From Elusimicrobiota bacterium (lineage in GTDB: Bacteria > Elusimicrobiota > Elusimicrobia > UBA1565 > UBA9628): a stretch of DNA of 64,000 bases. The position numbers and the translations under genes are program-made. Below, piece after piece: positions 8,026 through 57,102 of this stretch. Under the pieces are notes generated by a model. That model saw only the letters and a program-made list of their open reading frames with translations. It was not told the origin of the DNA and did not search any database. Within the stretch, counting starts at the first letter, position 1; the number at the start of each line of letters is the position of its first letter. The stretch is from assembly GCA_044450965.1 (NCBI GenBank), contig JBIOJO010000002.1, forward strand, positions 21,246 to 85,245, read 5' to 3'.

Positions 8026-8054
8026 CCTGTCAATTTGCTAATCTCCTGATCCTC

Positions 8055-17535: not shown

Positions 17536-19818
17536 CTAAGCTCCGTCCTTCTTCTTGGGCGTGTTGAGGTACTTGCTCGCCGCGTAGGCCGCGCCGCCGA
17601 TGATGGCCGCGCCGGCCAGCATCACCAGAGGCCCGCCGAAGAAGCTTCCCAGGATCAGGCCGAACATTCCGAAGGCCATGCCGTTGGCGATGTTGCGGTA
17701 CAGGTTCGGGTCGGGTTTCTTGTCGGCGGCGCCGCACTCCTTGTCGGTTCCGGCCGTGGATCCCGGATTCGCGGTGGTCTTTCCGCCGCAGGAGGCCGCG
17801 GGAACGTCGCCGACAACGGCCGGCTTTTTGCCGGAGTCCGGAGGGGGCGTGTCGTCCGGCTGGGCGTTGAGGGAGGCGCACGCCGCCTTGACGGCGGGGT
17901 CGGTGATCGGAGGAAGCGAAGCGGCCGGAGCGTTGGATTTTTTCGCGGCGCTGGGATCGCATTCGGCCGCGACGCGGCTGATGCAATCCTTGTCCTTCGC
18001 GCATGCCAGCACTTTTTGCGCTTTCTCCTCCGGGGCGCAGGCCGCCGTGGCGACCGATGCGCCGCCTCCGTTGATGACCGCGTTCTTATACGGAGCGCAG
18101 ACGTCCTTTTGCTGGGTCGGGGACAAGGTCGTGAAGGTGTCGTTATCCCGGATGGCGAGGATTTTCCGGTATTTTTCGTACACGGCGGCCAGCTTCGCCG
18201 GGTCGCCCTTCGCGTCCGCGACCTCCTTCAGGTAGGCCGTTTTTTCATCGGGAGTCAGCTTCTTGATCTGATCGTCGGTGAGCGGGGCTTTTCCCGTTTC
18301 GGGGGGCGACGTGTCGGTCGGCTTGTCGCCGGGTTTAGCGCCGGGGACGGTGCCGACGTCCGGCGCGCCGGGGACCTTGATGCCCGCGTCGGCCAGCATC
18401 TTCCGGTAGCGCGTGGCGATTTCGTACGCCACCAAATGCTCCGAGGGCCTGCTGGCTTCGCCGTTGACGATCATGATGTGGGCCATCTCGCGCTTGTAGT
18501 CGACCTTCGCGTCGCCCAGCTGGAGCGTCTGGACCTTGGCCTTGGTGATGGCGGCCAGGGCGTCCACTTCCGCCGGGGCCAGCTGGATCTCCGCGCCGGA
18601 GTAATGCTTCACGGCCAGGATGGCCGCGCTGATGGCGACGGGATCCATCTTCTTGCGGGCCTCCTGATATTGGGGAAGCCCTTCGGGACGGAGATTCTTC
18701 TCGACATTGTCGCGCGTCGTCTTGTAGAGCTCGATCCGGGCGGCTTTCGACTCCTTGACCACGACCTTACTTCGCGCGTCGTAGGCGGTGCGCTGGATGG
18801 GAGTGAGCCAGTCCTCCTCGGCGGGGGACAATTTCAGGACCACCTTCGAACGGTCATCGGCGCCGGCGGGACCGGTGCGCGGCTTGGCGCCGCCGACGCG
18901 GCCGGCCAGCATCCCGCGGAACTCCGCCACTTTCTCGACGGCATGGTCGCGGTTCGGCCCGGGCAGCGGGCGCCCGTCGGCTCCGAGCCTGACCGTCGCC
19001 ATCGCGCCCTTGTACTCCTCCAGCGCATTGTCGCGCTGGAGATGGGCGCCGACGCCGGCCCCTTTTTTGATCGCGCCGAGCTTTTTGAGTTCATCGGCGT
19101 CGCGTATGGCGATCAGCGCGTCCAGATACGCGGAAATTTTCTTGGGATCGAGCGGGGCTTTGGCCAGCGCCTCGTACTGCGCCTGGGCGAACGAGGGGAG
19201 ATGCTTGGCGACGGCATGGCGGGTCTGGCTCTCGAGCGTCAGTCGCGCGTCGGCGGAGGGATTCTCGCCGGCGGTCTTGTCGTAGTACGCTAGTTCGGTC
19301 TTCTCGAGCCAATAACGCTCGTCCGCGCCGAGCGCGGCGAAGCGTCCGTCCGCGCTGACGGCCGGCTTCAGTTCCGCGTCGGAGGGCGCGCGAAGGGAGA
19401 CGTCCTTCCCGTTCTTGCCGCGGTTGACCACGAAGGTCGGCGTCATGGTCCCGGGGCCGTAGACGGTCAATTCCGCGATCTTGGGGTCGACGGGCGTGAT
19501 CGCCGCCTTCCCGCTGGAGACGTCGAGCTTCACGCAATAGACGGGAATTTTGGTGTTGTATCCGAAGCGGGTGCCCCAGCTGTGCGACTCGGCGGTGACT
19601 TCGGAGAGCTTGCTGGCGAGAAACCCTCCGGGGCAACCGGCCGCCTGAGCGGCGTCGGCGCCGGACAGCACCTTCCATTCCTGGGGGTTGAAAGGCACGG
19701 TCCCGGCCGCAGGCGCGGGCGAGGACGCGGGACGAGGCGGAACGATCGCGTATGCTCCGTTGGGCAGGAGCAAAGTCGCGGCGAGAATGAGAGAGGGGTG
19801 CCTCATTTTTGGCCTCAC
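17536..19818 (-). CDS. Large exported protein (760 aa) with N-terminal signal peptide and C-terminal Gly-rich TM anchor, function unknown
   Basis: Signal LILAATLLLPNGAYA. C-terminus GMAFGMFGLILGSFFGGPLVMLAGAAIIGGAAYAASKY plus a basic tail. Confidence 0.5.
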   Translation of the reverse strand: MRPKMRHPSLILAATLLLPNGAYAIVPPRPASSPAPAAGTVPFNPQEWKVLSGADAAQAAGCPGGFLASKLSEVTAESHSWGTRFGYNTKIPVYCVKLDVSSGKAAITPVDPKIAELTVYGPGTMTPTFVVNRGKNGKDVSLRAPSDAELKPAVSADGRFAALGADERYWLEKTELAYYDKTAGENPSADARLTLESQTRHAVAKHLPSFAQAQYEALAKAPLDPKKISAYLDALIAIRDADELKKLGAIKKGAGVGAHLQRDNALEEYKGAMATVRLGADGRPLPGPNRDHAVEKVAEFRGMLAGRVGGAKPRTGPAGADDRSKVVLKLSPAEEDWLTPIQRTAYDARSKVVVKESKAARIELYKTTRDNVEKNLRPEGLPQYQEARKKMDPVAISAAILAVKHYSGAEIQLAPAEVDALAAITKAKVQTLQLGDAKVDYKREMAHIMIVNGEASRPSEHLVAYEIATRYRKMLADAGIKVPGAPDVGTVPGAKPGDKPTDTSPPETGKAPLTDDQIKKLTPDEKTAYLKEVADAKGDPAKLAAVYEKYRKILAIRDNDTFTTLSPTQQKDVCAPYKNAVINGGGASVATAACAPEEKAQKVLACAKDKDCISRVAAECDPSAAKKSNAPAASLPPITDPAVKAACASLNAQPDDTPPPDSGKKPAVVGDVPAASCGGKTTANPGSTAGTDKECGAADKKPDPNLYRNIANGMAFGMFGLILGSFFGGPLVMLAGAAIIGGAAYAASKYLNTPKKKDGA

Positions 19819-27200: not shown

Positions 27201-27275
27201 GCCCAGTTGGCGCAGTGGTAGCGCGTTCCCTTGACATGGGAAAGGTCACAGGTTCAAATCCTGTACTGGGCACCA
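27201..27275 (+). tRNA. tRNA-Val (anticodon GAC), CCA encoded
   Basis: Manual cloverleaf: acceptor GCCCAGT/ACTGGGC, D-arm GCGC-AGTGGTA-GCGC, anticodon stem TTCCC/GGGAA with loop TTGACAT, T-arm ACAGG-TTCAAAT-CCTGT. Confidence 0.85.
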
Positions 27276-27289
27276 TTTTCCTTCCTGAT

Positions 27290-27317
27290 CGGGCGCGCTC
27301 GGCGCGCTCTTTTTTTG
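27290..27317 (+). terminator. Rho-independent terminator after tRNA-Val
   Basis: GC hairpin gggcgcgc-tcg-gcgcgctc followed by TTTTTTT. Confidence 0.55.
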
Positions 27318-27460
27318 CCCGAATTGCCCATCGAATCGCGGCATAATTCCAAAAATGAGCGGCTCCGCGGGCGGCCGCCGCGCGGGGTCCGGAGCGGTGG
27401 GCAGAGGCCCAGGCAATATGTCTATAATATCGCCCCGTTACCATTAAGGAGTTGCTGACC

Positions 27461-29247: not shown

Positions 29248-32200
29248 ATGAAGACGACCCTCGCCGTCCCGATCGCGCTGACCCTGGCCCTCGCCCTGCC
29301 CGCCAGGGCGATGTCGTGGGGCGGCTCCTCGAAGCCCGATTTCGACGCCGTGTCCGAGGAGGCCGGGTTCTCTTCCGCGACCCAGCTGTTCCAGGAGACC
29401 GGCCGCGACAAGCTGGCCGTGGTCCAGGCCTTCGAGAATTTCGTCTCGCAGTTCCCGCGCAGCCCGCGGGTCGTCGACGCGCAGTTCCTCATCGGCGAGG
29501 CTTACCTGCAGCACGCGCTGTCCATCTTGAAGTCCGAGGCGACCGCCAAGAAGTCGTCCACCGCCCGCCTGCTCGCGCCGAAGAATCCGGCCGCGGCGAA
29601 GGCCCTGGAGGACGCGCGCAAGGCGTTCGAGGACGTCGTCCGCGACAAGAAATCCGGCCTGGCCGCCTCCGCGCAGTACCGCCTGGGGGAGGTCGCCTAC
29701 AACGACAAGGACTGGGAGAAGGCCGTCGCGGAGTTCCAGAACGTCGACAAGAATTTCCCGAAGTCCTACATCAACCCCGAGGCGCTGATGGGGATCATCT
29801 ACTCGGACCTGGCTTTGGAGCAGTTCTCCCAGGCCGAGGCGAACCTGTTCCTGCTGGGCGAGACCTACCCGACCTTCCTGCGCGAGCCGGCGGTCCTGTA
29901 CGCGCAGGGCATCGTGGCGCTCCACAAGGGCGACTACGCCAACGCCGAGCGTTCGCTGAAGGAAGTGAAGACCGCCGACGCGCAGTACTACCTGGGCAAG
30001 ACCTACCTGCTCAGCAAGCGCGCCTACCTGGCCGCGGCCGCCTTCGAGAACCTGATCCGCGACTACCAGGATTCCGAGCTGAAGGAGGAGGCGCAGTTCT
30101 TCATCGGCGACTCGTTCTTCCTGGCCGAGGACTTCAACGGCGCGATTTCCAAGTACCAGCGCTTCATCCAGCTCTATCCCGAGAGCCCGCTGCGCGTGTC
30201 CGCGCTGTTCCGCATCGGCTCGTCGTACTTCCAGAAGAAGGACTACGTGGAGGCGCGCGCCAACTTCCAGGCCGTCCTGGACCGCTACCCGAAGGACTTC
30301 TTCGCGCCGCTGGCTCAGTTCTTCATCGCCGAGTCCTACCTGATCGCCGGGCAGACGCGCGAGGCCCTGTTCGCCTACACCAAGGTCATCACGCAGTATC
30401 CGGACGCGGTCAAGATCGCGCCGGTCGCCTACTTCAAGCTGGCGTGGTGCCAGAACCAGGTCGGCGACTTCATGCAGGCCATCCAGACCGGCAACAACTT
30501 CGTGGCCCAGTACCCCAACCACGTGCTGGCCAAGAACATCTACGTGATCGTCGGCAACTCGCAGCTGTCGCTGAAGCGCTACGCGGAGGCGACGTCGTCC
30601 TTCCAGCGCATCATCGACCTGGCGCCGTCGTCGGACATCGCCGAGCAGGCGCTGTTCTCGATCCTGAAGAGCCAGTACGACCAGAAGGCCTTCAACTCCA
30701 TCCTGACGTCCTACCAGTTCATCTTCCGCCATCTGCCGCCGTCCAAATCCAAATGGCGCTCGATGAGCTACCTGTACGCCGCCGAGGCCTACCTGCAGCT
30801 GCAGCAGGTCGACGAGGCCAAGGTCATCTACGAGATGATCCTGAAGGTCTATCCGGACGACCCCGCGGCGTTCTACGCCCAGGACGGCCTGGCGTGGTGC
30901 CACTCGTACAAGGGCGAGGACCAGATGGCGCTGGAGGCGCGGCAGAAGCTCAAGGACATGCTCGCCGTGGCCAACTCCTCGTTCAGCTTCTCCGGCCTCA
31001 ACGAGCTGGGCATCGCGGACTCGATGTTCAACCAGAAGAACTACGAGGACTCCTATCAGCTCTACGCGAAGTACGCCGCCGACAATCCCGCGTCCCCCGA
31101 GGCGCCGTCGGCTCTGTACCGCGCGGCGATGAGCTCGTATCACCAGCGCTACTACACGCAGGCCATCGACTTGTGGAAGAAACTGATCGACCAGTACCCG
31201 AACGCGAAGGACTCCGCCCAGGCCCGCGCGCAGATCGCCGACACCTTGTTCCGCGCGCAAAAATACCCCGAGGCGATCGCGGCCTATCGCGGACTTCTGG
31301 ACGCGGACGCGAAGGGGCCCGCCGCGCCGCTGGCGCACCTGCGCATCGCGCAGTCGGCGTTCAACATGAAGGACGACGCGGCGGCGGTCAAGGAGGTCCA
31401 GGATCTGGTCGGGTCTTTCCCGGCGGCGCCGGAGTCCAACGACGGCCTGGATATCCTGGAGGCCGTGTTCGACCGCTCCCGCGGCTACGATTACAAGACC
31501 AGCCTGCGCGCGATCGTGACGTCCCAGCCCGGCACGCCCATCGGCGGGGAGGCTCAGTTCCGCCTGGCCCGCCGCGCCTTCGACGCGAAGGACTACCCGA
31601 CGGCCGCCGTCGAGTTCCAGAAGTTCTCGGTGGACTTCACGAACCACCCCGAGCTTCCGAAGGCGCAGTTCCTATTGGGGGAAAGCTATTTCAACCAGGG
31701 ACGCCATCAGGACTCGATCCCGGCGTACGAGCGCCTGCTCAACAACTTCGACAAGAACGACGACACGCCTCTGGCGGTGTTCCATCTGGCGAGCGCCTAC
31801 TACGCTCTGGAGAAGTACGACGACGCGTCGCGCTTCTACAACCGTCTGATCGAGGAGTATCCCAGCTCCGAATTCGCCGAGCCGGCGCAGTTCAACCTGG
31901 CGCTGGCGTACAAGAAGCTGGGCAAGCTGGACATGGCGCAATACGCCTACCAGAAGTACGTGGCCGCGGCCAAGCCCGGCGACGGGCAGGCGCAGAGCGC
32001 GCTGTGGGAGACGTATCAGATCCAGAAGGACCGCAAGGATTTCGACGGCGCGATCGCCACGCTGGCTCAGATCCGCTCCGTGCCGAAGGCCGACGCGGAC
32101 CTGACGTTCGAGACCTATTACAGGGAGAGCGAGGTCCGTCTGGCCGCCGGCCGGCCCGACGAGGCGCTGGCCGTCTGGGAGAAGATGCGGGCCATGAAGC

Positions 32201-32595
32201 CCGCCGGCTCCCCGTACCGGCTCCAGGCCCTGATCAAGCTGGGCGACGCGTACGAGAAGGCCAACGATCCCGCCTCCGCCGCGGACGTGTACGACGACCT
32301 GGCGAAGTCCGGGCCGAAGGACACGGCGAAGGCCGCGGCCGCGCGCGCGGCCGTGCTGCGCAAGTCCGCGGGCGGGGCGAAGCCGAAGAAGGCGGCGGCC
32401 GCCACGCCGAACGTGGACGAATCCGTTTCGCCCGACAGCGGCGGCACCCAGGTGATGCCGTCCGACGCGGGCGACGATCAGCCGGCGCCGGACGCGGTCC
32501 CGGTCAAGAAAGCGAAAAAGGCGAAGTCCGCCGTGAAGGGCCGACGCGGGGCCGCCGAGCCTTCGATGCCGGGCATGTCCAACCAGACCAACTAA
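29248..32595 (+). CDS. Exported giant tetratricopeptide-repeat protein (1115 aa) with a Lys/Ala-rich C-terminal tail
   Basis: Signal MKTTLAVPIALTLALALPARA. More than 20 TPR-like Y/F/W-x-helix repeats. Tail AKPKKAAAATP...KKAKKAKSAVKGRRG. ATG 3 nt after the thrS stop. Confidence 0.75.
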   Translation: MKTTLAVPIALTLALALPARAMSWGGSSKPDFDAVSEEAGFSSATQLFQETGRDKLAVVQAFENFVSQFPRSPRVVDAQFLIGEAYLQHALSILKSEATAKKSSTARLLAPKNPAAAKALEDARKAFEDVVRDKKSGLAASAQYRLGEVAYNDKDWEKAVAEFQNVDKNFPKSYINPEALMGIIYSDLALEQFSQAEANLFLLGETYPTFLREPAVLYAQGIVALHKGDYANAERSLKEVKTADAQYYLGKTYLLSKRAYLAAAAFENLIRDYQDSELKEEAQFFIGDSFFLAEDFNGAISKYQRFIQLYPESPLRVSALFRIGSSYFQKKDYVEARANFQAVLDRYPKDFFAPLAQFFIAESYLIAGQTREALFAYTKVITQYPDAVKIAPVAYFKLAWCQNQVGDFMQAIQTGNNFVAQYPNHVLAKNIYVIVGNSQLSLKRYAEATSSFQRIIDLAPSSDIAEQALFSILKSQYDQKAFNSILTSYQFIFRHLPPSKSKWRSMSYLYAAEAYLQLQQVDEAKVIYEMILKVYPDDPAAFYAQDGLAWCHSYKGEDQMALEARQKLKDMLAVANSSFSFSGLNELGIADSMFNQKNYEDSYQLYAKYAADNPASPEAPSALYRAAMSSYHQRYYTQAIDLWKKLIDQYPNAKDSAQARAQIADTLFRAQKYPEAIAAYRGLLDADAKGPAAPLAHLRIAQSAFNMKDDAAAVKEVQDLVGSFPAAPESNDGLDILEAVFDRSRGYDYKTSLRAIVTSQPGTPIGGEAQFRLARRAFDAKDYPTAAVEFQKFSVDFTNHPELPKAQFLLGESYFNQGRHQDSIPAYERLLNNFDKNDDTPLAVFHLASAYYALEKYDDASRFYNRLIEEYPSSEFAEPAQFNLALAYKKLGKLDMAQYAYQKYVAAAKPGDGQAQSALWETYQIQKDRKDFDGAIATLAQIRSVPKADADLTFETYYRESEVRLAAGRPDEALAVWEKMRAMKPAGSPYRLQALIKLGDAYEKANDPASAADVYDDLAKSGPKDTAKAAAARAAVLRKSAGGAKPKKAAAATPNVDESVSPDSGGTQVMPSDAGDDQPAPDAVPVKKAKKAKSAVKGRRGAAEPSMPGMSNQTN

Positions 32596-32607
32596 AGAGG
32601 AAACTTC

Positions 32608-33222
32608 ATGGGCGACATCCATATTCTGCAGCTTTTCCAGCAAAGCTTCACCTTGGTCATCATGCTGTTCCTGTCGGTGCTCTCGGTGACTTTCGCGGTG
32701 GAGCGCTGGTGGTACTTCCGCACGGCGGCCGGCAGGGCCGAGGACGTCCTGGGCGGCGTGCGCAAGCAGTTGGAGGGCGGCAAGCCCGAGGCGGCCGCGG
32801 CGGCGTGCCAGAAGAACCCGACGGCGGTGGCGCAGGTCGTCGCCTACGGCCTGATGCACGCGGGCCGCTCGCGCAAGGACCTGGAGGAGCTGATGCTCTC
32901 CAAGCTGAAGGAGGAGCGCCTGAAGCTGGAGCGCTTCCTGCCCATCCTGGGAACCTTGGGCAACATCTCCCCGTTCATCGGCCTGTTCGGCACGGTGGTC
33001 GGCATCATCAAGGCGTTCCGCGATCTGGCGGCCTCCGGCACGGGCGGGCCCTCGGTGGTCGCCGCGGGCATCGCCGAGGCGCTGGTCTCGACGGCGGCCG
33101 GCCTGCTGGTGGCCATTCCGGCCGCGGTCCTGTACAACTATTTCATGGGCCGTCTGAAGAAGACGACCGTCGAGATGGAAGTGGCGAGCGCGCGCCTGAT
33201 CGTGATGCTGGGCGCGAAATAG
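32608..33222 (+). CDS. MotA/TolQ/ExbB-family proton channel
   Basis: 3-TM architecture with FIGLFGTVVGIIKAF and GIAEALVSTAAGLLVAIPA. Confidence 0.85.
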   Translation: MGDIHILQLFQQSFTLVIMLFLSVLSVTFAVERWWYFRTAAGRAEDVLGGVRKQLEGGKPEAAAAACQKNPTAVAQVVAYGLMHAGRSRKDLEELMLSKLKEERLKLERFLPILGTLGNISPFIGLFGTVVGIIKAFRDLAASGTGGPSVVAAGIAEALVSTAAGLLVAIPAAVLYNYFMGRLKKTTVEMEVASARLIVMLGAK

Positions 33223-33238
33223 AAGGACCGGGAGAACC

Positions 33239-33655
33239 ATGGCCGGCGCGTCCCAGAACGACGGCGAACCGATCACCGCGATCAACGTCACCCCGTTGGT
33301 GGACGTGTGCCTGGTGCTGGTCATCATCTTCATGGCCGTCGCGCCCATGGCCGTGACTTTGGGCATCAAGGTTCTCGAATCCCGCCCGTCGAACCAGGAA
33401 GGCAAGGCCTCGGTGGACGAGAACGTCCAGATCAAGATCGCGTTGGACGGCGGCATCACGGTCAACGGGACGAAGACCGACGGGATGACGTTCCGTTCGG
33501 TTCTGGCCGGCGCGTTGACGCGCAGCAAGGACAAGATGGTCATCATCACCGCGGACGCCCGCAACCATGTCGGGCAGGTCGTCGAGGTCCTGGACGCGTC
33601 CAAGCAGGCCGGGGCGCTGAAGCTGGCGATCATGAAGGCGGACGGGGGGAGCTGA
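33239..33655 (+). CDS. ExbD/TolR-family protein (paralog 1)
   Basis: [21 protein letters not shown] is a single TM, followed by a periplasmic domain. Confidence 0.85.
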
Positions 33656-34065
33656 TGGCGGGATCCAGCTACAGCGACGACGCTCCCATCACGGACATCA
33701 ACATCACGCCGCTGGTGGACGTGTGCCTGGTGCTGGTCATCATCTTCATGGTGACCGCGCCGATGATGTCGGATCCGGCCATCAAGGTGGAGCTGCCCAA
33801 GGCCCACACGCAGGAAGGCGAGGAGAAGGACAAGATCACTTTGACGCTGTCGAAGGACGGCGAGTACGCGCTCGACTACGTGAAGTTCACGGACGTCAAG
33901 AAGCTGGAGGAGACGCTCAAGCAGAAGCTGGCGGAGAGCGACTCGAAGCTGATCATCCTGCGCGCCGACAAGGACGCGCTGACCGGCCAGCTGACGGACC
34001 TGATGGCCCGCGCCAAGGACGCCGGCGCGCTGTCCATGACGATCGCGACGGAACAACAGAAATGA
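33655..34065 (+). CDS. ExbD/TolR-family protein (paralog 2)
   Basis: [26 protein letters not shown]-type overlap with paralog 1. Confidence 0.8.
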
Positions 34066-34083
34066 AGACGGGGTCTCTGAGGC

Positions 34084-35154
34084 ATGGCTGAGGCGCGCAT
34101 CCCGACGTCGGTCGTCGTCTCCGTGGGCCTGCACGGCGGGCTGCTGGTGTTTTTCGGCCTGGCCATGCGCGAGGCCCCCAAGCAGGCGGCCAAGGTCGTG
34201 GACGGGGTGGACTTGCTGATCTCCGCGCCAAAGCCGCGCGCGGCGCAGGGCGAAGCGGCTCCCAAGCCGCCGCCGCTGTCCACGTTCGATTTCCTGAAGC
34301 TGGCCTTGCCGACGGTCCCGCATTCGGCCGCCCCGGCGCAGCTGTCGATCAAGATGCCCGAGCACAAGATCGCGCTGGCCGACGCGCCGAAGCTGGAGGA
34401 CGAGGCGAAGAAGGACCGTGGGCCGAAGCTTCAGACGCTGGACCTGAGCGCCCATCCGGTGGACGTGGCCAAGCTGGACGTGAAGATCACCCGCCGCCAG
34501 GCCGCGGCGACCTTGGCCGCGCTGCCGCGCCTGGAGGAAGTCGGCCGCAAGCGGGTGAAGAACCTGCCTCAGGCCCTGGAGCTGGAGGACCGCCGCCGGG
34601 AGGCGGTCGCCGCCTCCGGCCTGCCGGAGATGACGATCAAGACTCCGACGCGGCGCCAGGCTCTGGCCGCGGTCTCCGCGCTGCAGGAAGCCGCGCCCGC
34701 CGAGCGCGCGCCGGAGCGTAAGGGGCTGGGCTCGCTCCTGCCGGAAAGGCCGCTGCTGATGGAGGCTCGCCCTCAGCCGGTCATGGCCGCTAAAATGGAG
34801 AAGGTCTCCGCGATCGCTCCGCGCCTGGAGCGCCGCCAGGCCGAGCAGGCCGGCGCCGCGAAGAAAGGCGTCGAGATCGAGGGGCCGCTGGCCGACCGTA
34901 AGGTCGCGGCCTATTCGGTGCCGTCGTTTCCGGACTGGGCCCGGAACCAGGGAATCCTGGAGGCCGACGTGGCCATCCGGTTCACCGTGGACGAGGACGG
35001 CAACGTGATGCCGGGGATGCGCGTGGAGAACTCCTCGGGCTACGGCCGCCTCGACAAGCTGGCGATGGAATCCTTGAGAAGCTGGCGCTTCGCGACGAAG
35101 CCGGGCGCGGGCGTGCAGTGGGGCGTGATCACCTTCCGGTTTATCTTGGAGTGA
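34084..35154 (+). CDS. TonB/TolA-like energy-transducer (N-terminal TM, long Pro/Ala/Lys linker, C-terminal TonB_C domain)
   Basis: TM VVVSVGLHGGLLVFFGLA. C-terminus ILEADVAIRFTVDEDGNV...GYGRLDKLAMESLRSWRF matches TonB_C. Confidence 0.7.
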   Translation: MAEARIPTSVVVSVGLHGGLLVFFGLAMREAPKQAAKVVDGVDLLISAPKPRAAQGEAAPKPPPLSTFDFLKLALPTVPHSAAPAQLSIKMPEHKIALADAPKLEDEAKKDRGPKLQTLDLSAHPVDVAKLDVKITRRQAAATLAALPRLEEVGRKRVKNLPQALELEDRRREAVAASGLPEMTIKTPTRRQALAAVSALQEAAPAERAPERKGLGSLLPERPLLMEARPQPVMAAKMEKVSAIAPRLERRQAEQAGAAKKGVEIEGPLADRKVAAYSVPSFPDWARNQGILEADVAIRFTVDEDGNVMPGMRVENSSGYGRLDKLAMESLRSWRFATKPGAGVQWGVITFRFILE

Positions 35155-35159
35155 CGACT

Positions 35160-36101
35160 ATGATGATGAACGCGATCGCCGTCCTGCTTCTGTCCGTCCC
35201 GGTCTCGGCCCAAAACGCGCCGGCGTCCACCGGCCCGGCCACGACCGGCGGCATGCCCACCGAGGTCGTCATCAAGGCCGACGGCAACAAGCTCTCCGAC
35301 ACCAAGCCGCCGCTCAAGATCGACGTGGACCCGTTCGAGACCATCCGGCCGGAGCTGAAGCCCGACCAGAACCTTCTGCTGGCCGTGTCGCCCCTGACCG
35401 TGTCGTGGCGGCGCACGCACCCCGAGTTCCTGTTCAACGATCGTGTGATCCAGCCGTGGCGCGGCACGTTCAGCCAGCGTCCGGGCATCGCGTTCAAGAT
35501 CCGCGAGCAGCTGGAGAACCTCCTGGGAGGCGGCAAGGGCGACCCCAAGGAGCTCAAGAAGTGGGGCTGGAGCCTGACCATCGCCGACGAGGAAGGCCGC
35601 GTCTTCCATCACTACGAGGGCTCCGGCGATCCGCCCGAGGAGATCATCTGGAACGGTCAGAACGACCAGAACGAGTGGGTCCGCGCCGGCCGCTCCTACT
35701 CCGCCGTCTACACGTTCACCAGCCCCGACGGCTCGCCGCGCACGCGCGTGGGCAACCCGCTTTTGTTCAAGGGCATCGTCCACCAGGAGGACACCGGCCT
35801 GCACATCAGCATGGACTCCTCGGTGCTGTTCGGCACCAACAAGAACGGCCAGGAGCTCCAGGACGGGCCCGGCAAGGACCTGCTGCGCTCCGCGGCCGAC
35901 CTGGTCAAGCGCCGTTTTCCCGCGATCCCCATCGCGGTGCGCGTCTACTCCAACACCAAGGAGCTGGGCGACGCCCAGGCCGCGGCCGTTCAGCAGTTCC
36001 TGCTCCGCGACCTGATGGTTCCGGCGCGCAACATCTCCACCGACGCCGCGCGCGCCCCGTTCTCCGATCAGCGCGTCGAGGTCGTGCTTCTGAACCGGTG
36101 A
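35160..36101 (+). CDS. Exported protein with a C-terminal OmpA/Pal-like peptidoglycan-binding domain
   Basis: Signal MMMNAIAVLLLSVPVSA. C-terminus SVLFGTNKNGQEL...IPIAVRVYSNT...DAQAAAVQQFLLRDL is a divergent OmpA_C-like domain. Confidence 0.55.
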   Translation: MMMNAIAVLLLSVPVSAQNAPASTGPATTGGMPTEVVIKADGNKLSDTKPPLKIDVDPFETIRPELKPDQNLLLAVSPLTVSWRRTHPEFLFNDRVIQPWRGTFSQRPGIAFKIREQLENLLGGGKGDPKELKKWGWSLTIADEEGRVFHHYEGSGDPPEEIIWNGQNDQNEWVRAGRSYSAVYTFTSPDGSPRTRVGNPLLFKGIVHQEDTGLHISMDSSVLFGTNKNGQELQDGPGKDLLRSAADLVKRRFPAIPIAVRVYSNTKELGDAQAAAVQQFLLRDLMVPARNISTDAARAPFSDQRVEVVLLNR

Positions 36102-36433
36102 CCGTCGGCTCGGGTAACTACAAGCGCATCTACGCCGTCGCGCGGCGGATTCCGCGCGGCCGCGTCGCCACCTACGGTCAGATCGCGGCCTTGGCCGGCC
36201 TCCCGAACCACGCGCGTCAGGTCGGGTACGCGCTCCAGGCGCTGCCCGAGGCCTCGGACGTGCCTTGGCAGCGCGTGGTGAACGCTTCGGGGGGAGTCAG
36301 TCCTCGCCCTCATCCTTATGCGGTCATGATGCAGCGCGCCATGCTGGAGAAGGAAGGCGTCGTCTTCGGCGCGAATGGGAAAATTTCGCTCTCGCGGTAC
36401 GGTTGGCACGCCAAACTCGGTTCCAATCGTTGA
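36098..36433 (+). CDS. Alkyltransferase-like protein (MGMT DNA-binding domain without the catalytic Cys: PWQRVV replaces PCHRV)
   Basis: NYKRIYAVARRIPRGRVATYGQIAALAG...PWQRVVNASG. GTG start overlapping the upstream stop. Confidence 0.65.
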   Translation: MTVGSGNYKRIYAVARRIPRGRVATYGQIAALAGLPNHARQVGYALQALPEASDVPWQRVVNASGGVSPRPHPYAVMMQRAMLEKEGVVFGANGKISLSRYGWHAKLGSNR

Positions 36434-45617: not shown

Positions 45618-46289
45618 GTGAAGCTGTTCCTTTCCTTCGCCGTCCTGTTCTGCGCGACGCGCGGGGTCGCCGGCCCCATCGGGGCCGTGGACGCGCACGC
45701 GGTCTCCGCCACGGGTTTTCCCGGCGCGTACTTGGAGAGCATCTCCTTGGCGGCCGCGTCCGATCCGTTCTACGGCTCCCGCTTCCTGGACGGGCTCCAG
45801 GTCCATCTGCAGGCGGTGAGCGGCATGACCGCCCAGCCCGCGATCGCCAGCTACCTGGAACAGGCGGCCACCGCCGGTCAGGGCCTGGGCCAATTGAAGG
45901 AGTCCTTGGGCGCGGTGCCCCTTGATCCGCCGAAGGCGGCCGCGCTGCTGATCGCCAACGCGCTGGCGCGTCCCCGGCAGTTCCGCGAAGTGATCGACAA
46001 CCTGGAGACGTTCAAGCCGGGCCTGGGCCGCCACGCGGCCGCCATCCTGCGCGAAACCAAGGGCGAGGGCGACAAGCGCGTCATCGCGGCGCTGCGCGCC
46101 GCGGGGGAAAACAAGCCGCAGGGGAAGATGCTGACCTACGGCCCCGACGGGCGGCTGGACATGCTGTTCGACGGCATCGAGGGCGTCCGCGCCGGCGCCG
46201 CCGAGTCCTCCGTCGTGACCGCCCCGGCGAGCGTGTATGGGCCCGACGGCCGTCCGCGTCCTTCCGGGCTTCTTCCCGCCAAGCCGTAA
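45618..46289 (+). CDS. Exported hypothetical protein (GTG start)
   Basis: Signal MKLFLSFAVLFCATRGVAGP. Coding-like GC3. No homolog recognised. Confidence 0.45.
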   Translation: MKLFLSFAVLFCATRGVAGPIGAVDAHAVSATGFPGAYLESISLAAASDPFYGSRFLDGLQVHLQAVSGMTAQPAIASYLEQAATAGQGLGQLKESLGAVPLDPPKAAALLIANALARPRQFREVIDNLETFKPGLGRHAAAILRETKGEGDKRVIAALRAAGENKPQGKMLTYGPDGRLDMLFDGIEGVRAGAAESSVVTAPASVYGPDGRPRPSGLLPAKP

Positions 46290-46338
46290 GTCCCGGACGG
46301 TTGAGGTCCGCGGGCATATCTGGTATCATGTCCGTCAC

Positions 46339-46413
46339 GGGCCTGTAGCTCAGCTGGGAGAGCGCCTGCATGGCATGCAGGAGGTCAGCGGTTCGATCCC
46401 GCTCAGGTCCACC
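46339..46413 (+). tRNA. tRNA-Ala (anticodon GGC), G3:U70 identity pair, CCA encoded
   Basis: GGGCCTGTAGCTCAGCTGGGAGAGC..., anticodon loop ATGGCAT, T-arm AGCGG-TTCGATC-CCGCT, acceptor 3' CAGGTCC-A-CCA. Confidence 0.85.
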
Positions 46414-46419
46414 AGATTT

Positions 46420-46441
46420 AAAACCCCCGCGAGGGGGTTTT
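46420..46441 (+). terminator. Rho-independent terminator after tRNA-Ala
   Basis: aaaaCCCCCgcgaGGGGGttttt. Confidence 0.6.
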
Positions 46442-46514
46442 TAATTTCAGGGGATCGAACCGCTGAACGACTTTAAAGGCGGTCCGGCCGCGCGTCGTGC
46501 CGCGCGGCCGGGCC

Positions 46515-46541
46515 GCGGTTCGATCCCGCTCAGGTCCACCA
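46515..46541 (+). repeat. 27-nt direct duplicate of the tRNA-Ala 3' end (gcggttcgatcccgctcaggtccacca), 128 bp downstream of the original copy. Att-site-like.
   Basis: Exact match to 46387-46413. Preceded by a perfect 11-bp GC hairpin (ccggccgcgcg-tcgtgc-cgcgcggccgg). An inverted partial T-arm fragment lies at 46448-46466 (ggggatcgaaccgctgaac). Confidence 0.6.
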
Positions 46542-46676
46542 CTTTCGACGCGTTTCTCGACGAGAACCCGGTTCGAGCCTTTCGTTTGGCTTTGACCGGG
46601 TTCTCTGCTTTTGGAGGGGCTATGGTCACAAATTGGTCACAAGCCTTTTTGGCCGGCGCCACAACGAACACAGGCC

Positions 46677-46710
46677 TTGACGCGAGCTGCTACGGGGCTA
46701 CACTCAGGCG
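46677..46710 (+). promoter_or_regulatory. Sigma70-type promoter TTGACG-16-TACACT, then GGAG and ATG 46722
   Basis: ttgacg(46677-46682), tacact(46699-46704), GGAG 46713-46716. Confidence 0.45.
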
Positions 46711-46721
46711 ATGGAGCGGCG

Positions 46722-47942
46722 ATGATGGGGGGCGACACGAAACTTGGCAGGCGGTTGTTCAATTGTCTGCTGGCGATTGCCGGTGTCAGTTTGTCGTCGC
46801 GGGCCGACGCTGCGGCGGCCTCGCCGCTCTTGGTCGACGAGGCCTGCTTTGCGGTCGCTGAGAGCACTCAAGACTGGCTTCCTAGAGAAGGTGGAAAGGG
46901 ATGTAAGACCTCTCCTCACGGGACAGAGCCCGACGACATTTTTTCATTCGAAGAAGGAGCCAACCTCGAGCGGGGCCAAACGTTCTCAAACTTTGGTTCG
47001 ACACTGGCAGTTGTCGAGGTCGCCGACGATATCCTGGTTCTTGTCGATGGAAAAAAAGTTGCCGAGTTCACGGATCCGCACGGCGTAAGGGAGCCGATTC
47101 AGGCCGCGTTTTTCCATGATCGAAGCTGGGTACTTGAGCACGACGGCACCGTTGTGGTCGACGGCCATGACATCGCCAAAGAAAATGGATATCAAGCGGT
47201 CTTCTTCTATCGGTTTCTCGGCGATCGTCCCTTTTTCCTGTTCGTGGATGCCGCCGGAAAATTTGGGATGTCTTTCGATGGCAAGGTTCTCCCATTCCAT
47301 TACGACGCAATACCTTATGGGCTTTGTTGCAGCAATGGCGTATTCAATCCTCGGCGCAGTCCCAGCGCCGCGGTCTTCTTCGGCCTCAGAGGAAAGACAT
47401 GGTATAGCGTGACGGCACGCGCTCGTCTTCCGACACCTGAAGAAACAACGCAAAAGGTTGAGGGGATCGTCAGTTCCCTCGAGTCCGCGCGGAACTGGTT
47501 TACAGTCGAGGTCAACGGCGAGGGTTGGGCGACCACTCTTAGTAGCCACACGATGATGATGCGTTCAGGCCAGAAACCTATCCCAGCCCGCTTCGACTTG
47601 CTTCATCTTGGGCAAAGGGTCAGTACGATCCGGGCGTCGAACGGCGAATTACTGTGTGTCATTTTTCTTGATCCGGTCGCCGATGGAACAGAGAAGGCCA
47701 TGACTTCTGTACTCGCGGAAGTCGTCTCATACTCAGGCTCAAGCGCGGAATTGACCGTACTCACTTGGGGCTCTGTCCGTCAGAGCTACAGCTTCATCAT
47801 CACTCCCGATACCAAGATTTGGCGCTATAAGGGTTTGCCGATAAAGGTTCCGGTCGAGACGCTCGTCCCGGGTGCGCCTGTGACCGTTGAATATGAAGTT
47901 GAAGGATCCAGCCTCGTGGCACGAACAATCGGCGGGAGGTAG
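46722..47942 (+). CDS. Exported hypothetical protein (406 aa) in a lower-GC segment
   Basis: Signal MMGGDTKLGRRLFNCLLAIAGVSLSSRADA. GC is about 55%, against about 68% in the flanks. Runs of A/T are common here and rare elsewhere in the window. Confidence 0.55.
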   Translation: MMGGDTKLGRRLFNCLLAIAGVSLSSRADAAAASPLLVDEACFAVAESTQDWLPREGGKGCKTSPHGTEPDDIFSFEEGANLERGQTFSNFGSTLAVVEVADDILVLVDGKKVAEFTDPHGVREPIQAAFFHDRSWVLEHDGTVVVDGHDIAKENGYQAVFFYRFLGDRPFFLFVDAAGKFGMSFDGKVLPFHYDAIPYGLCCSNGVFNPRRSPSAAVFFGLRGKTWYSVTARARLPTPEETTQKVEGIVSSLESARNWFTVEVNGEGWATTLSSHTMMMRSGQKPIPARFDLLHLGQRVSTIRASNGELLCVIFLDPVADGTEKAMTSVLAEVVSYSGSSAELTVLTWGSVRQSYSFIITPDTKIWRYKGLPIKVPVETLVPGAPVTVEYEVEGSSLVARTIGGR

Positions 47943-48043
47943 CTCCACTGTCCGAACTCGGCTTCGCTGGTGATTCCCATTGGCCACTATCCGCTAATAG
48001 CAGCTGACGCTACTAGCGATGGTAAAGAACCGTTTCACCGGCC

Positions 48044-49276
48044 CTACAAGCCGGCGAGCATCGTCCACGGAAGAGCGACGATCTTCGTGCCCATCCGAGC
48101 CACCTTTCGGCCGGTATGGACGAGAACGCCCGCGCTCGCCTCGGGGTGGTCCTTGAGGAACGCCTCGAGGCCTCCGCAGTCGGCGTAGCTGGGGGAGTCG
48201 GTCAGCTTGACCTCGACGGCGATGATCTTGCGGCCCCACTCCAACACCAGGTCGACTTCGCTGCCTTTCATGGTGCGCCAATAGTAGAGGCGGAGTTTCG
48301 GCGTGAAGGTCCCGGCGAGAGCCTTCAAGTGATGGAAGATCAGGTTCTCGAAGAGCGGGCCCGTTTCCCGTGAGGCTTTGATCGAAGCCTCGTCGTGCAA
48401 GCCGCCGAGATAGGCTGCCAGAGCCGGATCGATCCAATGAAGCTTGGGAGCCTTGATCAATCGCGTGGTCCGGTTGCGAGCGAACGCGGGGAGTCGGTCG
48501 ATGAGACAGGTCGTCTCAAGGAGGTTCAGGTATCGGTGCACCGTCGCCTGGGAAACGTGGGAGTCGCGGGCGACATTGGTCTGATTGACCACCTGCCCGC
48601 AGCGAAGGGCCAGCACTTCCTTGACCGTGCGGAAGTCGGACAAGGATTCGACCTGCGAGAGTTGCCTGAGGTCGCGTTCAAGATACGTCGCCGAGTAGCC
48701 TTCCCACCAGCGCGTCCGGCTCTCCGCCGTGGGCAAGGAGAGCAGGCCGGGCATGAAGCCCCGCGCGATCGCGGAAATGGGGTCCTGTGCATGCGCCGCG
48801 AGCGTCTCGTCGCGGGGGAACTCCCCTTCGAAGATCGCCTGGACGACAGACGGAGCATTCTTGCGCTGAACCTCGCCGGCCGTCATGGGAAGGAGCGTCA
48901 AGTAGACGGCGCGTCCCGCCAGGCTTTCGGAGACATGCTTCATCAAAAGGAGATTCGCGGAGCCCGACAGGACGAAGTGCATCTTACGCGGATGCTCGTC
49001 CACGGCCTGCTTGACCGCGGAAAGAATGGCGGGAAGGCGCTGGACCTCATCCAGAATCACGTGATCCGCGCCCGCCCAAAGGCCGGCGGGGTCGCGCTCG
49101 CCCTGCCGCAATGCATCCAGGTTGTCGAGGGTGACGTACTTCCAGCGCTTGGTCGGCTCTTCATGCCGGAGGAGGGTGCTCTTGCCCACCTGGCGCGCTC
49201 CGGTGAGGACCACGACCGGGTGTTCGGCGACGGCTCGCGCGAACTGAGGGGCTAGCCAACGGGGGAGAAAATTCAA
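48044..49276 (-). CDS. AAA-family ATPase with a C-terminal DUF4143 domain (ATPase family common in mobile/accessory regions). TTG start proposed.
   Basis: Walker A VVVLTGARQVGKSTLL, Walker B HVILDEVQ. The C-terminal region is typical of the AAA_14 + DUF4143 architecture. The track ORF extends a further 59 codons into an AT-rich promoter region, so the start was trimmed to TTG 49276. Confidence 0.7.
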   Translation of the reverse strand: MNFLPRWLAPQFARAVAEHPVVVLTGARQVGKSTLLRHEEPTKRWKYVTLDNLDALRQGERDPAGLWAGADHVILDEVQRLPAILSAVKQAVDEHPRKMHFVLSGSANLLLMKHVSESLAGRAVYLTLLPMTAGEVQRKNAPSVVQAIFEGEFPRDETLAAHAQDPISAIARGFMPGLLSLPTAESRTRWWEGYSATYLERDLRQLSQVESLSDFRTVKEVLALRCGQVVNQTNVARDSHVSQATVHRYLNLLETTCLIDRLPAFARNRTTRLIKAPKLHWIDPALAAYLGGLHDEASIKASRETGPLFENLIFHHLKALAGTFTPKLRLYYWRTMKGSEVDLVLEWGRKIIAVEVKLTDSPSYADCGGLEAFLKDHPEASAGVLVHTGRKVARMGTKIVALPWTMLAGL

Positions 49277-49440
49277 TTCTTTGTCTGAATCGTTATTATT
49301 CACTATCTGAATTATAAGTCGCAACTGTCCAATTTGCAAGACCTCTGAGGAAACGTCGGGCGGGGTTGGTGACGAAGGCGGTTGAAAGCCCCCGCTGGAG
49401 GAAATCCGACACTTCCGGCGGCTTCCATCGTCTAACGGGC

Positions 49441-49959
49441 ATGAAATCCGCATTGCTCTCCGTCGCCTTGACCGCCGCGCTCTCCGCCTCCGCGGCCGCG
49501 GGCTCCATCCCGAAGTCGAACGTGACGGAGACGCTGGCGTACGCCAGCGCCGAGCAGGCCGCGGTGGAGGCGTTGAAGATCGCGATGCCGCTGAGCGGCA
49601 GCTATGAGAACGGCGGCTTCATCGCCGAACGGGACGGGGAGTATTTCTACTCCGATCCCGTCTCCGCCCACGAAGAGGGACATATCTCCTTCGCCGCCGT
49701 GATACCGGCGGGGGCCCGGCTGGCGGCCATTTATCACACCCATCCCGGCGCTTCCTCCGAATATCTTCTTTTCTCGTCCGACGACGTGAAGGAAGCCCGG
49801 GCCCTGGGCGTGGACTCCTATATCGGGGTGCTGGACGACCATACGGTCCGTCGCTTCGAGCCGGGCCGGACGCCCACGCGGCCGTTCGCGGCGCCGGCGG
49901 AAATGCTTTCCGGCATGGTTTCCGACGGCGTGATCGTCGCGACAGTCGTCAATTTCTAA
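49441..49959 (+). CDS. Exported hypothetical protein (172 aa)
   Basis: Signal MKSALLSVALTAALSASAAAGS. Contains a His-rich YHTHPG segment. Divergent from the ATPase gene across an AT-rich region. Confidence 0.5.
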   Translation: MKSALLSVALTAALSASAAAGSIPKSNVTETLAYASAEQAAVEALKIAMPLSGSYENGGFIAERDGEYFYSDPVSAHEEGHISFAAVIPAGARLAAIYHTHPGASSEYLLFSSDDVKEARALGVDSYIGVLDDHTVRRFEPGRTPTRPFAAPAEMLSGMVSDGVIVATVVNF

Positions 49960-50914: not shown

Positions 50915-56362
<5,448 letters not shown>

Positions 56363-56430
56363 CGCGATACTATGCGCGCCACGGCGGAAATTATCAACGC
56401 CGCGGCTGTCAGGACTGTCAGCGGACGGCG

Positions 56431-57102
56431 TCAGACGATCAGCTGGTAGCCGGCTCTCGTCGTCGAGACGCGGTAGCCTTCGTCGCCCAAGTCCTGGCGA
56501 AGGCGCTGGACCGTCTTCTCGAGGTCGTTCTTCGTGCCTTCGCGGCCCCAGATGTTCTCGACGAGCTCCGGCCACGGCACCTCGGCTTCCCTCTGGATGA
56601 GGTGGAACAGGACTTCGAAGCGCTTCGGCGCCAGGTTGGCGATCATCTTTCCGCCGACCCAGACCGACTTCGATTCCGGCAAAATCCGGAAAACGCCGCG
56701 TGACCACACCGCGAAAGGCGGCTTCGTGCTCCGGCTGGCGAGCAGGCGCTTGATGCGCGGGACCAGCTCCGACGTCTGGATCGGCTTGCGGAGATATTCG
56801 ACCGCTCCGAGGGCCTTGATCTCGCTCTCGAAGAAGTTCGCATCGGCGGGGTAGGCGGTCAAGACGATGATGGGGATGTCGCGCGTGGCCTTGTGCTTCT
56901 TGAGGAGCCTGACGACTTCGACTCCGTTGAGCCCCGGGAGCATCATGTCCAGCAGGATTAGGTCGGGGTTGAGGGAGAGGGCCTTCTCGTGGCCCTCGGG
57001 GCCGGTGAAGGCGTAATGAACCTCGAAGCCCTGATTTCGCAGGACGTGCGAGATCAGATGCTGGAAATCTGGATCGTCTTCGACGCTGAGTATTCTGTGC
57101 AT
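56431..57102 (-). CDS. OmpR-family response regulator (REC + winged-helix DNA-binding domain)
   Basis: [13 protein letters not shown]...[13 protein letters not shown]...LRKPI, then a winged-helix C-terminus ...[25 protein letters not shown]... Confidence 0.8.

Follow-up and report, generated by a model that had tools for sequence, protein, structure and literature searches.

Which client is driven by the Tol/Ton-type motor encoded in a 64-kb stretch of DNA from an Elusimicrobiota bacterium? This stretch of 64,000 nucleotides (assembly GCA_044450965.1, contig JBIOJO010000002.1), with a high GC content of approx. 66%, is referred to as the window, and coordinates are positions in it unless another locus is named. 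Tol and Ton are the two textbook routes by which energy of the inner membrane is conveyed to the outer envelope of diderm bacteria, and the number of further clients of such motors has been raised again as a question (PMC12204202). The cluster encodes, in this order, a giant exported tetratricopeptide repeat (TPR) protein, a TolQ/ExbB-like protein, two TolR/ExbD paralogs, a transducer with a C-terminal TonB_C domain and an exported protein designated ORF6. With about even probability, these proteins form an accessory envelope module of Tol/Ton type that draws on the proton-motive force and in which ORF6 would be the dedicated client and the TPR protein a scaffold. No description of this cluster was found in the searchable literature.

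The initial annotation, made from the sequence alone, had assigned the cluster to the Tol/Ton family of energy-transduction systems, which is borne out by matches to PF01618, PF02472 (twice) and PF03544. The gene order given there (thrS, TPR protein, TolQ, two TolR, TonB_C protein, exported protein) was recovered in full on the plus strand. The genes are as tightly spaced as claimed: the junctions, read directly, are gaps of at most 18 nt or overlaps, and paralog 2 starts with an ATG that shares 1 nt with the stop codon of paralog 1. TolB, Pal, a TonB-dependent receptor or a second motor were not found in the window. The lack of TolB agrees with the initial annotation; a search with E. coli TolB gave no match in the window and in the related loci L001, L085 and L086, while TolB was found in 11 canonical loci of other phyla.

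Conservation of the gene cluster

TolQ homologs with 80–93% identity come from entries named Elusimicrobia or Elusimicrobiota bacterium, which agrees with the phylum given for the window; an exact look-up of the TolQ itself gave no match, and orthologs were compared. The neighbourhood of the unit was read at the orthologs on four further high-GC contigs, L001 (3.1 Mb, in GCA_965283875.1), L085 and L086/L087, where the same order of genes is present: thrS, a TPR protein of approximately 1100 amino acids, TolQ, TolR, TolR, a TonB_C protein of approximately 355 and an ORF6 of approximately 312 amino acids. A distant relative, L094, was reached with an ORF6 family profile; it comes from a metagenome-assembled genome with a GC content of only 33% (GCA_018000795.1) and has the same six-gene architecture. 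Its one-to-one orthologs are 51% (TolR1), 58% (TolR2), 46% (TolQ), 25% (transducer) and 23% (ORF6) identical to the proteins encoded in the window, and the TPR ortholog is 29% identical over 886 residues. Five independent contigs carry the TPR-TolQ-TolR-TolR-TonB_C-ORF6 unit, and the identity of the proteins falls as low as 23–58%; the arrangement is no chance juxtaposition. Related arrangements extend further. On another metagenomic contig of a further lineage, two ExbD, a TonB_C protein and an ORF6-like protein are encoded behind a protein of at least 1463 amino acids, and a locus of FCPU426 (L027) contains genes for a 1020-amino acid CpoB-type TPR protein, an unknown gene, TolQ, TolR and a TonB_C protein.

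Motor proteins and transducer

The TolQ-like protein matches PF01618 with 113 bits, and its residues T129, E157, T162 and P171 align with T145, E173, T178 and P187 of E. coli TolQ. The TolR paralogs match PF02472 with 73 (paralog 1) and 102 bits (paralog 2) and are 38% identical to each other. The initial annotation had suggested looking for the proton-relay aspartate in the transmembrane segment of each TolR; it is present in both (PLVDVCL, extended to TPLVDVCL in paralog 1). The cluster therefore encodes the parts that define such a motor, a PF01618 subunit with the threonine ring, glutamate and proline, and PF02472 partners with the transmembrane aspartate. TolQ is presumed to form a pentameric proton channel. 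With the curated models, TolQ and TolR rank above ExbB and ExbD, but all scores are below the cut-offs, so that neither equivalog assignment can be made: TolQ scored 119 bits with TIGR02796 (tolQ; cut-off 221) and 88 bits with exbB (cut-off 206), while the TolR paralogs scored 68 and 93 bits with TIGR02801 (cut-off 127) and 56–60 bits with the ExbD models (cut-offs 153 and 216). Matches of TolQ in the PDB are about equal for TolQ (2e-19) and ExbB (2e-17).

In the neighbour-joining tree of TolR proteins, TolR1 and TolR2 form two separate ortholog clades with 100% bootstrap each, unrelated to the ExbD1/ExbD2 pairs of Acidobacteriota. The tree places the duplication within the clade of the window proteins, with weak support. 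Since the two ortholog clades are separate, fully supported and unrelated to the pairs of Acidobacteriota, the TolR duplication is, judged by the tree, old, retained and specific to this system, and independent of the one in Acidobacteriota. A TolR1-TolR2 heterodimer is plausible, because both paralogs keep the proton-relay aspartate and have long been retained as separate orthologs.

The transducer belongs to the TonB/TolA class by three features, an N-terminal transmembrane helix with an SxxxH motif, an extended linker and a C-terminal TonB_C fold. The helix begins at about residue 8 and includes S13 and H17 of the SxxxH motif. It is followed by the motifs VDxVDLL and P..DFLK.A, which may form a motor box. 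S13, H17, D69-F70-L71-K72 and an EGPL..RKV segment are invariant in five transducer orthologs with identities down to 28%. The TonB_C domain comprises residues 280–354 and was detected above the cut-offs with PF03544 (38 bits) and TIGR01352 (42.5 bits). Of the TonB_C protein with a long Pro/Lys linker described initially, the domain and the length of the linker (approximately 245 amino acids) stand, while its composition is mixed rather than simply rich in proline and lysine (Ala, Leu, Pro, Lys, Arg and Glu, with Ala at 19%, Pro at 11% and Lys at 9%).

ORF6 and its N-terminal motif

ORF6 consists of a signal peptide, a conserved region of approximately 90 amino acids predicted to be disordered, a FlgD-Ig-like β-sandwich (residues 137–220, approximately) and a divergent OmpA-like domain (approximately 221–314). 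It has no match in Pfam, including OmpA (PF00691), or in NCBIfam; the close homologs, all from Elusimicrobiota, are annotated as “hypothetical” throughout. The AlphaFold2 (AF2) model is confident over residues 110–314 and contains a β-sandwich and an alpha/beta domain. An exhaustive profile search yielded 630 representatives of the family, of which the remote ones are proteins of the type [FlgD_ig]n-OmpA (PF00691). The predicted fold and the remote homologs together identify the second domain as having the alpha/beta OmpA_C fold. An hhalign comparison of the ORF6 family with E. coli Pal was not significant (13 columns aligned). The canonical peptidoglycan-binding motif of OmpA-like domains, TD(x)7NxxLSxxRA (PMC5104382), is absent from ORF6 and from its ortholog in L094; the corresponding stretch is shorter, without the Asp/Arg pair, and reads YSNTKELGDAQAAAV in ORF6 and TSSDDLSQDDIDNIK in the L094 ortholog.

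The description of this protein as OmpA/Pal-like and exported can thus be kept in part: it is predicted to be exported and is OmpA-like by predicted fold and remote homology, but the likeness to Pal has to be given up, as no lipobox is present. An assignment of ORF6 as Pal was rejected for the lack of a lipobox, of a PF00691 match and of the peptidoglycan-binding motif. Likewise, the family does not consist of lipoproteins, a loose lipobox pattern being found in only about 6 of 65 representatives.

Approximately 17 residues past the predicted signal peptide cleavage site, ORF6 contains the sequence TEVVIKA. In 66 representatives of the family, one per cluster of 50% identity, the consensus at this site is G-x-L-x-[D/E]-V-[V/T/I]-[I/V]-K-[G/A], with D/E in 56, V in 43, I/V in 65, K in 44 and G/A in 49 of the 66 sequences. 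Similar strands are the TonB boxes of FhuA (DTITVTA) and BtuB (DTLVVTA) and the N-terminus of mature TolB (EVRIVIDSG), by which TolB binds TolA; the shared character is a short strand near the mature N-terminus in which acidic residues are followed by β-branched ones. The ORF6 gene is always located directly downstream of the TonB_C gene. Because of this position and the conserved TonB-box-like N-terminus, ORF6 might be a dedicated client of the transducer.

The TPR protein

With 1115 amino acids, the TPR protein is indeed 4–5 times as large as CpoB/YbgF (approximately 260 amino acids), as stated in the initial annotation. It carries a signal peptide without a lipobox, followed by about 12 TPR modules of the CpoB/YbgF type that tile residues 39–1033, and ends in a basic, disordered tail of approximately 75 amino acids rich in Lys, Ala and Pro. 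The score with TIGR02795 (318 bits, cut-off 90) exceeds the cut-off only through the summed repeats. BamD/YfiO models match as well; otherwise, only CpoB and other TPR models do. The TPR domain of E. coli CpoB was found in 13 phmmer domains of the protein, while the N-terminal coiled coil of CpoB gave no match. The protein therefore does not have the architecture of CpoB, a coiled coil and a single C-terminal TPR domain in about 260 amino acids. A single-sequence AF2 prediction is all-helical, with helices over residues 37–1041; its pLDDT (predicted local distance difference test) of 52.6 makes the secondary structure usable, but not the overall shape. The orthologs in L001, L085, L086 and L094 are 1028–1106 amino acids long. 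The TPR protein might serve as a periplasmic scaffold. In one natural fusion protein (P0366 in L092, 872 amino acids), a TPR region of YbgF type is combined with an ORF6-like FlgD-Ig/OmpA-like module, which hints that TPR protein and ORF6 work together.

Placement among Ton systems

The gene context of TolQ was compared in 80 distant loci of other phyla (32–47% TolQ identity, among the matches listed, which did not include the close Elusimicrobiota relatives). Three classes of context were found: the canonical TolQRA-TolB-Pal-CpoB arrangement (class 1), the TonB-ExbB-ExbD-ExbD-TPR arrangement of Acidobacteriota (class 2) and a loose class, mostly of Myxococcota, in which TolQ-TolR-TonB_C is followed by TonB-dependent receptors or OmpA proteins (class 3). 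The TolQ clade of the window is supported with 100%, lies outside classes 1 and 2 and falls inside class 3 without support. Of the TolQ/TolR phylogeny against Tol and Ton types proposed initially, local clades could be resolved, whereas deep placement stays unsupported in both neighbour-joining trees (bootstrap <30). With hidden Markov models (HMMs) built for each context group, TolQ scored 175 bits for the receptor-linked, 146 for the Tol-Pal-linked and 151 for the remaining group; these HMMs discriminate weakly, as E. coli ExbB itself scores best with the Tol-Pal-linked one. Sequence placement leans weakly to relatives of Ton type and is not decisive for the function. In two Myxococcota loci, a TolQ-TolR-TonB set is immediately followed by a TonB-dependent receptor in which a TonB_C domain at the N-terminus precedes the CarboxypepD_reg and Plug domains (L002 12267–16025, L045 11953–14550), the former with an additional barrel domain.

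It is possible, if unlikely, that the cluster is the general Ton system of its lineage. ExbB, ExbD1, ExbD2 and TonB would then energise transporters encoded elsewhere, e.g. BtuB, with the TPR protein as an accessory similar to TtpD2 of Vibrio and ORF6 as a minor or additional partner. Both readings overlap, as one motor could serve both kinds of clients. The layout of the cluster agrees with a Ton system: one TolQ with two TolR, a TonB and a TPR protein are standard in the loci of Acidobacteriota, tandem exbD1-exbD2 genes occur in Xanthomonas and Flavobacterium psychrophilum (PMC3551730), and the TonB2 system of Vibrio cannot work without TtpD2, a TPR protein (PMC6957404). The C-terminus of the transducer matches TonB_C and tonB_Cterm, while the transducer of a second cluster type of the phylum (set 2, see below) matches TonB_2 and weakly tolA_full, so that set 2 looks like TolQRA. 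The higher score of TolQ for the receptor-linked than for the Tol-Pal-linked group (175 versus 146 bits) and the presence of BtuB in Endomicrobiaceae (PMC11257099) point in the same direction. Against a general Ton system, neither the window nor the flanks examined at related loci encode a TonB-dependent receptor, and the invariant partners, an OmpA-like protein and a CpoB-like TPR protein of 1100 amino acids, are foreign to such systems. Moreover, TolQ and TolR outscore ExbB and ExbD among the curated models, all below cut-off, the apparent co-transcription with thrS is a housekeeping context, and no sign of regulation by iron or nutrients was seen nearby, though no search for regulatory sites was made.

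Relation to the Tol-Pal system

A second type of cluster (set 2) is present in Elusimicrobiota (L012, L047, L088 and L091) and encodes a TolQ of 207 amino acids, a TolR of 139, a TonB_2/TolA-like transducer of approximately 240 amino acids and an ORF of 127 amino acids. In the Elusimicrobiaceae locus covered, the motor is of the set 2 type only. Elusimicrobia bacterium RIFOXYD12_FULL_66_9 harbors both types of TolQ, an ortholog of the window protein (P0042, A2506_05095) and one of the set 2 type (P0242, A2506_08920). In L094, genes for Pal and CpoB are located on the opposite strand, approximately 2 kb upstream of the cluster (Table 1). Canonical components have also been reported by others: curated tol-pal loci of Elusimicrobia (Williams-Jones et al. 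2025, PMC12204202) contain a motor, a transducer, TolB, Pal and a lipidated CpoB, and Endomicrobiaceae encode TolB, OmpA and BtuB in a phylum without flagella (PMC11257099). By its gene content, the cluster is distinct from canonical Tol-Pal. Since a second TolQ set is encoded in RIFOXYD12_FULL_66_9, and Pal and CpoB in L094, it probably serves a process other than Tol-Pal, or a further one besides it; the suggestion of a non-classical function made in the initial annotation is thereby strengthened.

Some further observations concern these loci. Set 2 is divergent from a MoxR-DUF58-BatA/VWA operon in high-GC Elusimicrobiota (L088 3214–12182; L090). The conserved 127-amino acid ORF after set 2 contains no known domain, and a 439-amino acid gene product encoded after set 2 in L091, considered as TolB, was rejected since it is a TMEM260-like glycosyltransferase. 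The lipidated CpoB of L094 agrees with the published claim that ancestral CpoB was lipidated (PMC12204202).

Given these findings, it is improbable that the cluster is a functional equivalent of Tol-Pal that would tether the outer membrane and act in constriction during division, with ORF6 taking the place of Pal and TolB and the TPR protein that of CpoB. Several features do recall Tol-Pal: among the HMMs, those for TolQ and TolR match best; the score of the TPR protein is above the tol_pal_ybgF cut-off of TIGR02795; the gene for an OmpA-like protein comes after that for the transducer, just as pal comes after tolA and tolB; the N-terminus of ORF6 resembles the TolA-binding N-terminus of TolB; and the length of the linker is nearer to TolA than to E. 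coli TonB. Against this reading, the cluster coexists with canonical lipoprotein Pal and CpoB in L094, a second, more TolQRA-like set is present in a related genome, and TolB and Pal have been reported for the phylum. In addition, ORF6 lacks lipid anchor and peptidoglycan-binding motif, no TolB β-propeller is encoded, and TolQ lies outside the TolB/Pal-linked clade, albeit with weak support.

Similarity to the Agl-Glt machinery of Myxococcus had been proposed in the initial annotation, and it holds for the architecture, while homology is not supported. The parts run parallel, the TolQ-like and two TolR-like proteins corresponding to AglR, AglQ and AglS, the TPR protein of 1115 amino acids to GltD (1191 amino acids) and the TonB_C-like transmembrane protein to GltG, and bacteria without gliding motility carry the core complex in one operon, of unknown function (PMC3169522). 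Nevertheless, a motor for surface motility or cargo trafficking akin to AglRQS with GltD and GltG is very improbable: the GltG model NF033760 gave 16 bits (cut-off 650) and matched just the last 64 residues, and the 18.6 bits of the AgmX/PglI tail model (cut-off 40) were likewise confined to the generic TonB_C region; the transducer, whose helix begins near residue 8, has no cytoplasmic FHA domain; counterparts of GltE, GltC and GltF as well as a second or third TPR gene were not found, though the library may lack models for GltD, GltE and GltC; the TPR protein is built of CpoB-type repeats; the TolR duplication groups within the window clade, with weak support; and Luciano et al. (PMC3169522) report the core complex from no groups other than the Delta-, Gamma- and Betaproteobacteria and the Fibrobacteres. 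The Myxococcota loci among the matches listed contain TolQ-TolR(-TonB) sets with a single TolR and no TolQ-TolR-TolR.

Proposed function

For the accessory module with ORF6 as dedicated client, the following mechanism is proposed. A TolQ/ExbB-type pentamer would house the TolR1-TolR2 pair, and proton flow would drive the TonB-class transducer, which would be anchored by its SxxxH helix and span the periplasm with the linker of approximately 245 residues. Its TonB_C domain would capture the (D/E)VVIK(G/A) strand of ORF6 by β-strand augmentation. Pulling on the soluble periplasmic ORF6 could then release it from, or reposition it relative to, a partner, which might be the cell wall, the outer membrane or the TPR protein, in a manner resembling the pulling of TolB off Pal by TolA. 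The CpoB-like TPR protein of about 1100 residues would act as periplasmic scaffold. The module would work beside canonical Tol-Pal parts, in relatives where this can be checked, and not replace them. Its cellular function might be envelope tethering or remodelling.

Several points weigh against this proposal. The contact between ORF6 and the TonB_C domain is deduced from gene position and a short motif, and this motif falls outside the strict PROSITE pattern of the TonB box. The confidence of the AF2 model is low in the N-terminal region of ORF6, which fits disorder and proves nothing. The fusion of TPR and ORF6-like regions is known from a single metagenomic contig, and neither the TolQ nor the TolR tree has support at its deep nodes. 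Among the matches listed, the closest TolQ relatives outside the phylum adjoin genes for TonB-dependent receptors, which are preceded there by the TolQ and TonB_C genes. Because Endomicrobiaceae encode BtuB (PMC11257099), the phylum needs some TonB system, and the window cluster could be it.

The cluster might even represent a third functional class of TonB/TolA-type systems, with a dedicated client that is neither an outer membrane barrel nor TolB-Pal but a soluble periplasmic FlgD-Ig/OmpA-like protein, captured by its own TonB-box-like N-terminus and organised by the TPR scaffold; this suggestion is tentative and somewhat less likely than not. It would then be a new proton-driven system for envelope remodelling in deeply diverged lineages in and around Elusimicrobiota, found beside canonical Tol-Pal components. 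As a candidate for a further type of client, the cluster has the advantage of being cleanly delimited and deeply conserved, with a concrete predicted contact between TonB_C and (D/E)VVIK, and in it CpoB-type TPR modules are expanded to a giant protein, the proposed scaffold. Even as a general Ton system, it would be equipped with an unusual pair of accessory proteins in an early-branching, little-studied phylum.

Genomic context

The coordinates of the cluster, its flanking genes and the related features in other loci are compiled in Table 1. The upstream hairpin (27291–27309; stem of 8 bp with 7 GC pairs) is followed by TTTTTTT, and the terminator scan revealed no convincing terminator inside the cluster. 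The TGA of thrS is located 2 nt upstream of the TPR start (TGA, GA, ATG), with GGGAG upstream, and both genes appear to be translationally coupled. In most bacteria, thrS precedes infC-rpmI-rplT. It adjoins the TPR gene in L001, L085 and L086, but not in L094. In the relatives of this ThrS, no TGS domain match was found.

Table 1. Features of the cluster and of related loci. Positions refer to the window unless another locus is given.
Feature	Position	Strand	Remarks
tRNA-Val(GAC) and hairpin/T-run region	27201..27319	+	ARAGORN and terminator scan; likely upstream boundary of the transcription unit
thrS (threonyl-tRNA synthetase), 597 aa	27452..29245	+	context gene, first of the apparent operon, outside the machine
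TPR protein, 1115 aa	29248..32595	+	TIGR02795 (YbgF/CpoB), 318 bits, 11 stretches
TolQ/ExbB-like protein, 204 aa	32608..33222	+	PF01618
TolR/ExbD paralog 1 (TolR1), 138 aa	33239..33655	+	PF02472
TolR/ExbD paralog 2 (TolR2), 136 aa	33655..34065	+	PF02472
TonB_C transducer, 356 aa	34084..35154	+	PF03544
ORF6, exported, 313 aa	35160..36101	+	true ATG at 35160; no Pfam match
TonB-box-like/TolB-box-like motif TEVVIKA within ORF6	35259..35279	+	family conservation
ATL (alkyltransferase-like protein), 111 aa	36098..36433	+	PF01035
Lipoprotein CpoB-like protein	L094 1–591	−	coiled coil and TPR_6
Lipoprotein Pal	L094 595–1143	−	45% identical to E. coli Pal; GHCDERG...LSLGQKRA intact
P0366 fusion neighbourhood	L092 2774–9613		neighbours are an 841-aa WD40 propeller protein and a further TPR protein

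The gene for the alkyltransferase-like protein (ATL) downstream of ORF6 begins with a GTG on the ORF6 stop codon (GTGA overlap) and had been counted as a member of the cluster. The content downstream of ORF6 varies in L001, L085 and L086/L087, and the gene is therefore regarded as a neighbour and not as a component. It was rejected as part of the system since its position is not conserved; it was found at this place in none of the four related loci examined (L001, L085, L086 and L094). The protein reads VPWQRVV/PWQRV where methyltransferases have PCHRV, the catalytic cysteine being replaced by tryptophan.

Elsewhere in the window, several further features were noted. The GC content falls to 0.59–0.63 at 46000–49500, directly after a tRNA-Ala gene (46339–46414); this segment contains a gene for an AAA_14/DUF4143 ATPase (48044–49453, minus strand) and may be an integrated element. 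A hybrid histidine kinase of 1930 amino acids (50915–56707, minus strand) contains 8–9 tandem HAMP domains, GAF, HisKA/HATPase and three receiver stretches. At 7485–8960 (plus strand), a response regulator receiver is fused to a 4HBT thioesterase domain; the protein has a weak score with E. coli YbgC. A 760-amino acid protein with a signal peptide-like N-terminus (17536–19818, minus strand) has no Pfam match.

Comparison with known systems

The cluster shares its basic design with Tol-Pal. The essential Thr, Glu and Asp residues of the TolQ/TolR motor, predicted to be of the 5:2 type here, are common to both, and so are a transducer that is anchored by SxxxH and ends in a domain of TonB/TolA type, a TPR protein with CpoB/YbgF repeats and an OmpA-fold protein encoded downstream. 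The proposed capture of an N-terminal strand would correspond to that of TolB by TolA. The cluster differs in the missing TolB propeller, the two TolR paralogs, an ORF6 that has neither the lipid anchor nor the peptidoglycan-binding motif of Pal, and a TPR protein that is 4–5 times larger, lacks the coiled coil and is encoded first.

With the Ton systems containing two ExbD and a TPR protein (Acidobacteriota, Xanthomonas/Flavobacterium and TonB2/TtpD2 of Vibrio), it shares an operon of ExbB/TolQ, tandem ExbD/TolR, TonB_C and TPR proteins, and in both cases the client would carry a TonB-box-like motif. Here, however, the TPR protein is of the CpoB type with approximately 1100 amino acids, compared to approximately 280–425, the TolR duplication is independent of that in Acidobacteriota, and no receptor is linked; the linked client would be a soluble OmpA-like protein without a β-barrel. 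In PVC (Planctomycetes-Verrucomicrobia-Chlamydiae) bacteria, TPR-tolQ-tolR-tolR-vWA clusters with two heterologous tolR-like genes have been described (Williams-Jones et al. 2025, PMC12204202). By the published description, their order is the same, with a TPR protein first, a TolQ-like and two TolR-like proteins and an SHLS/His-anchored transducer, while the C-terminal domain is vWA instead of TonB_C, the additional OmpA-like gene is found only in the present cluster, and the phylum is another. The combination of one TolQ, two TolR and a TPR protein is thus not specific for Agl, because it is also found in the Ton loci of Acidobacteriota, alongside the exbD pairs of Xanthomonas and Flavobacterium, and in the PVC clusters. 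The Agl-Glt complex (AglRQS, GltD, GltE, GltG and GltC; PMC3169522) likewise combines one TolQ-like protein with two of TolR type, a TPR protein above 1000 amino acids in length and a TonB_C-like transmembrane protein that would couple to the motor, but no sequence kinship specific to it was detected, the transducer encoded in the window has no FHA domain, counterparts of GltE, GltC and GltF were not found, and ORF6 has no equivalent in the Agl-Glt core.

For ORF6 itself, the nearest parallels are Tp0624 of Treponema pallidum (PMC5104382), to which it has a fold match and in which extra N-terminal domains likewise precede an OmpA-like domain with altered peptidoglycan-binding residues, and PorE of Porphyromonas, whose set of TPR, propeller and OmpA domains recalls the TPR-ORF6-like fusion of L092 with its WD40 neighbour. 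Unlike both, ORF6 has a FlgD-Ig domain, a TonB-box-like N-terminus and a linked motor and transducer, and whereas PorE is a lipoprotein, ORF6 has no lipid anchor.

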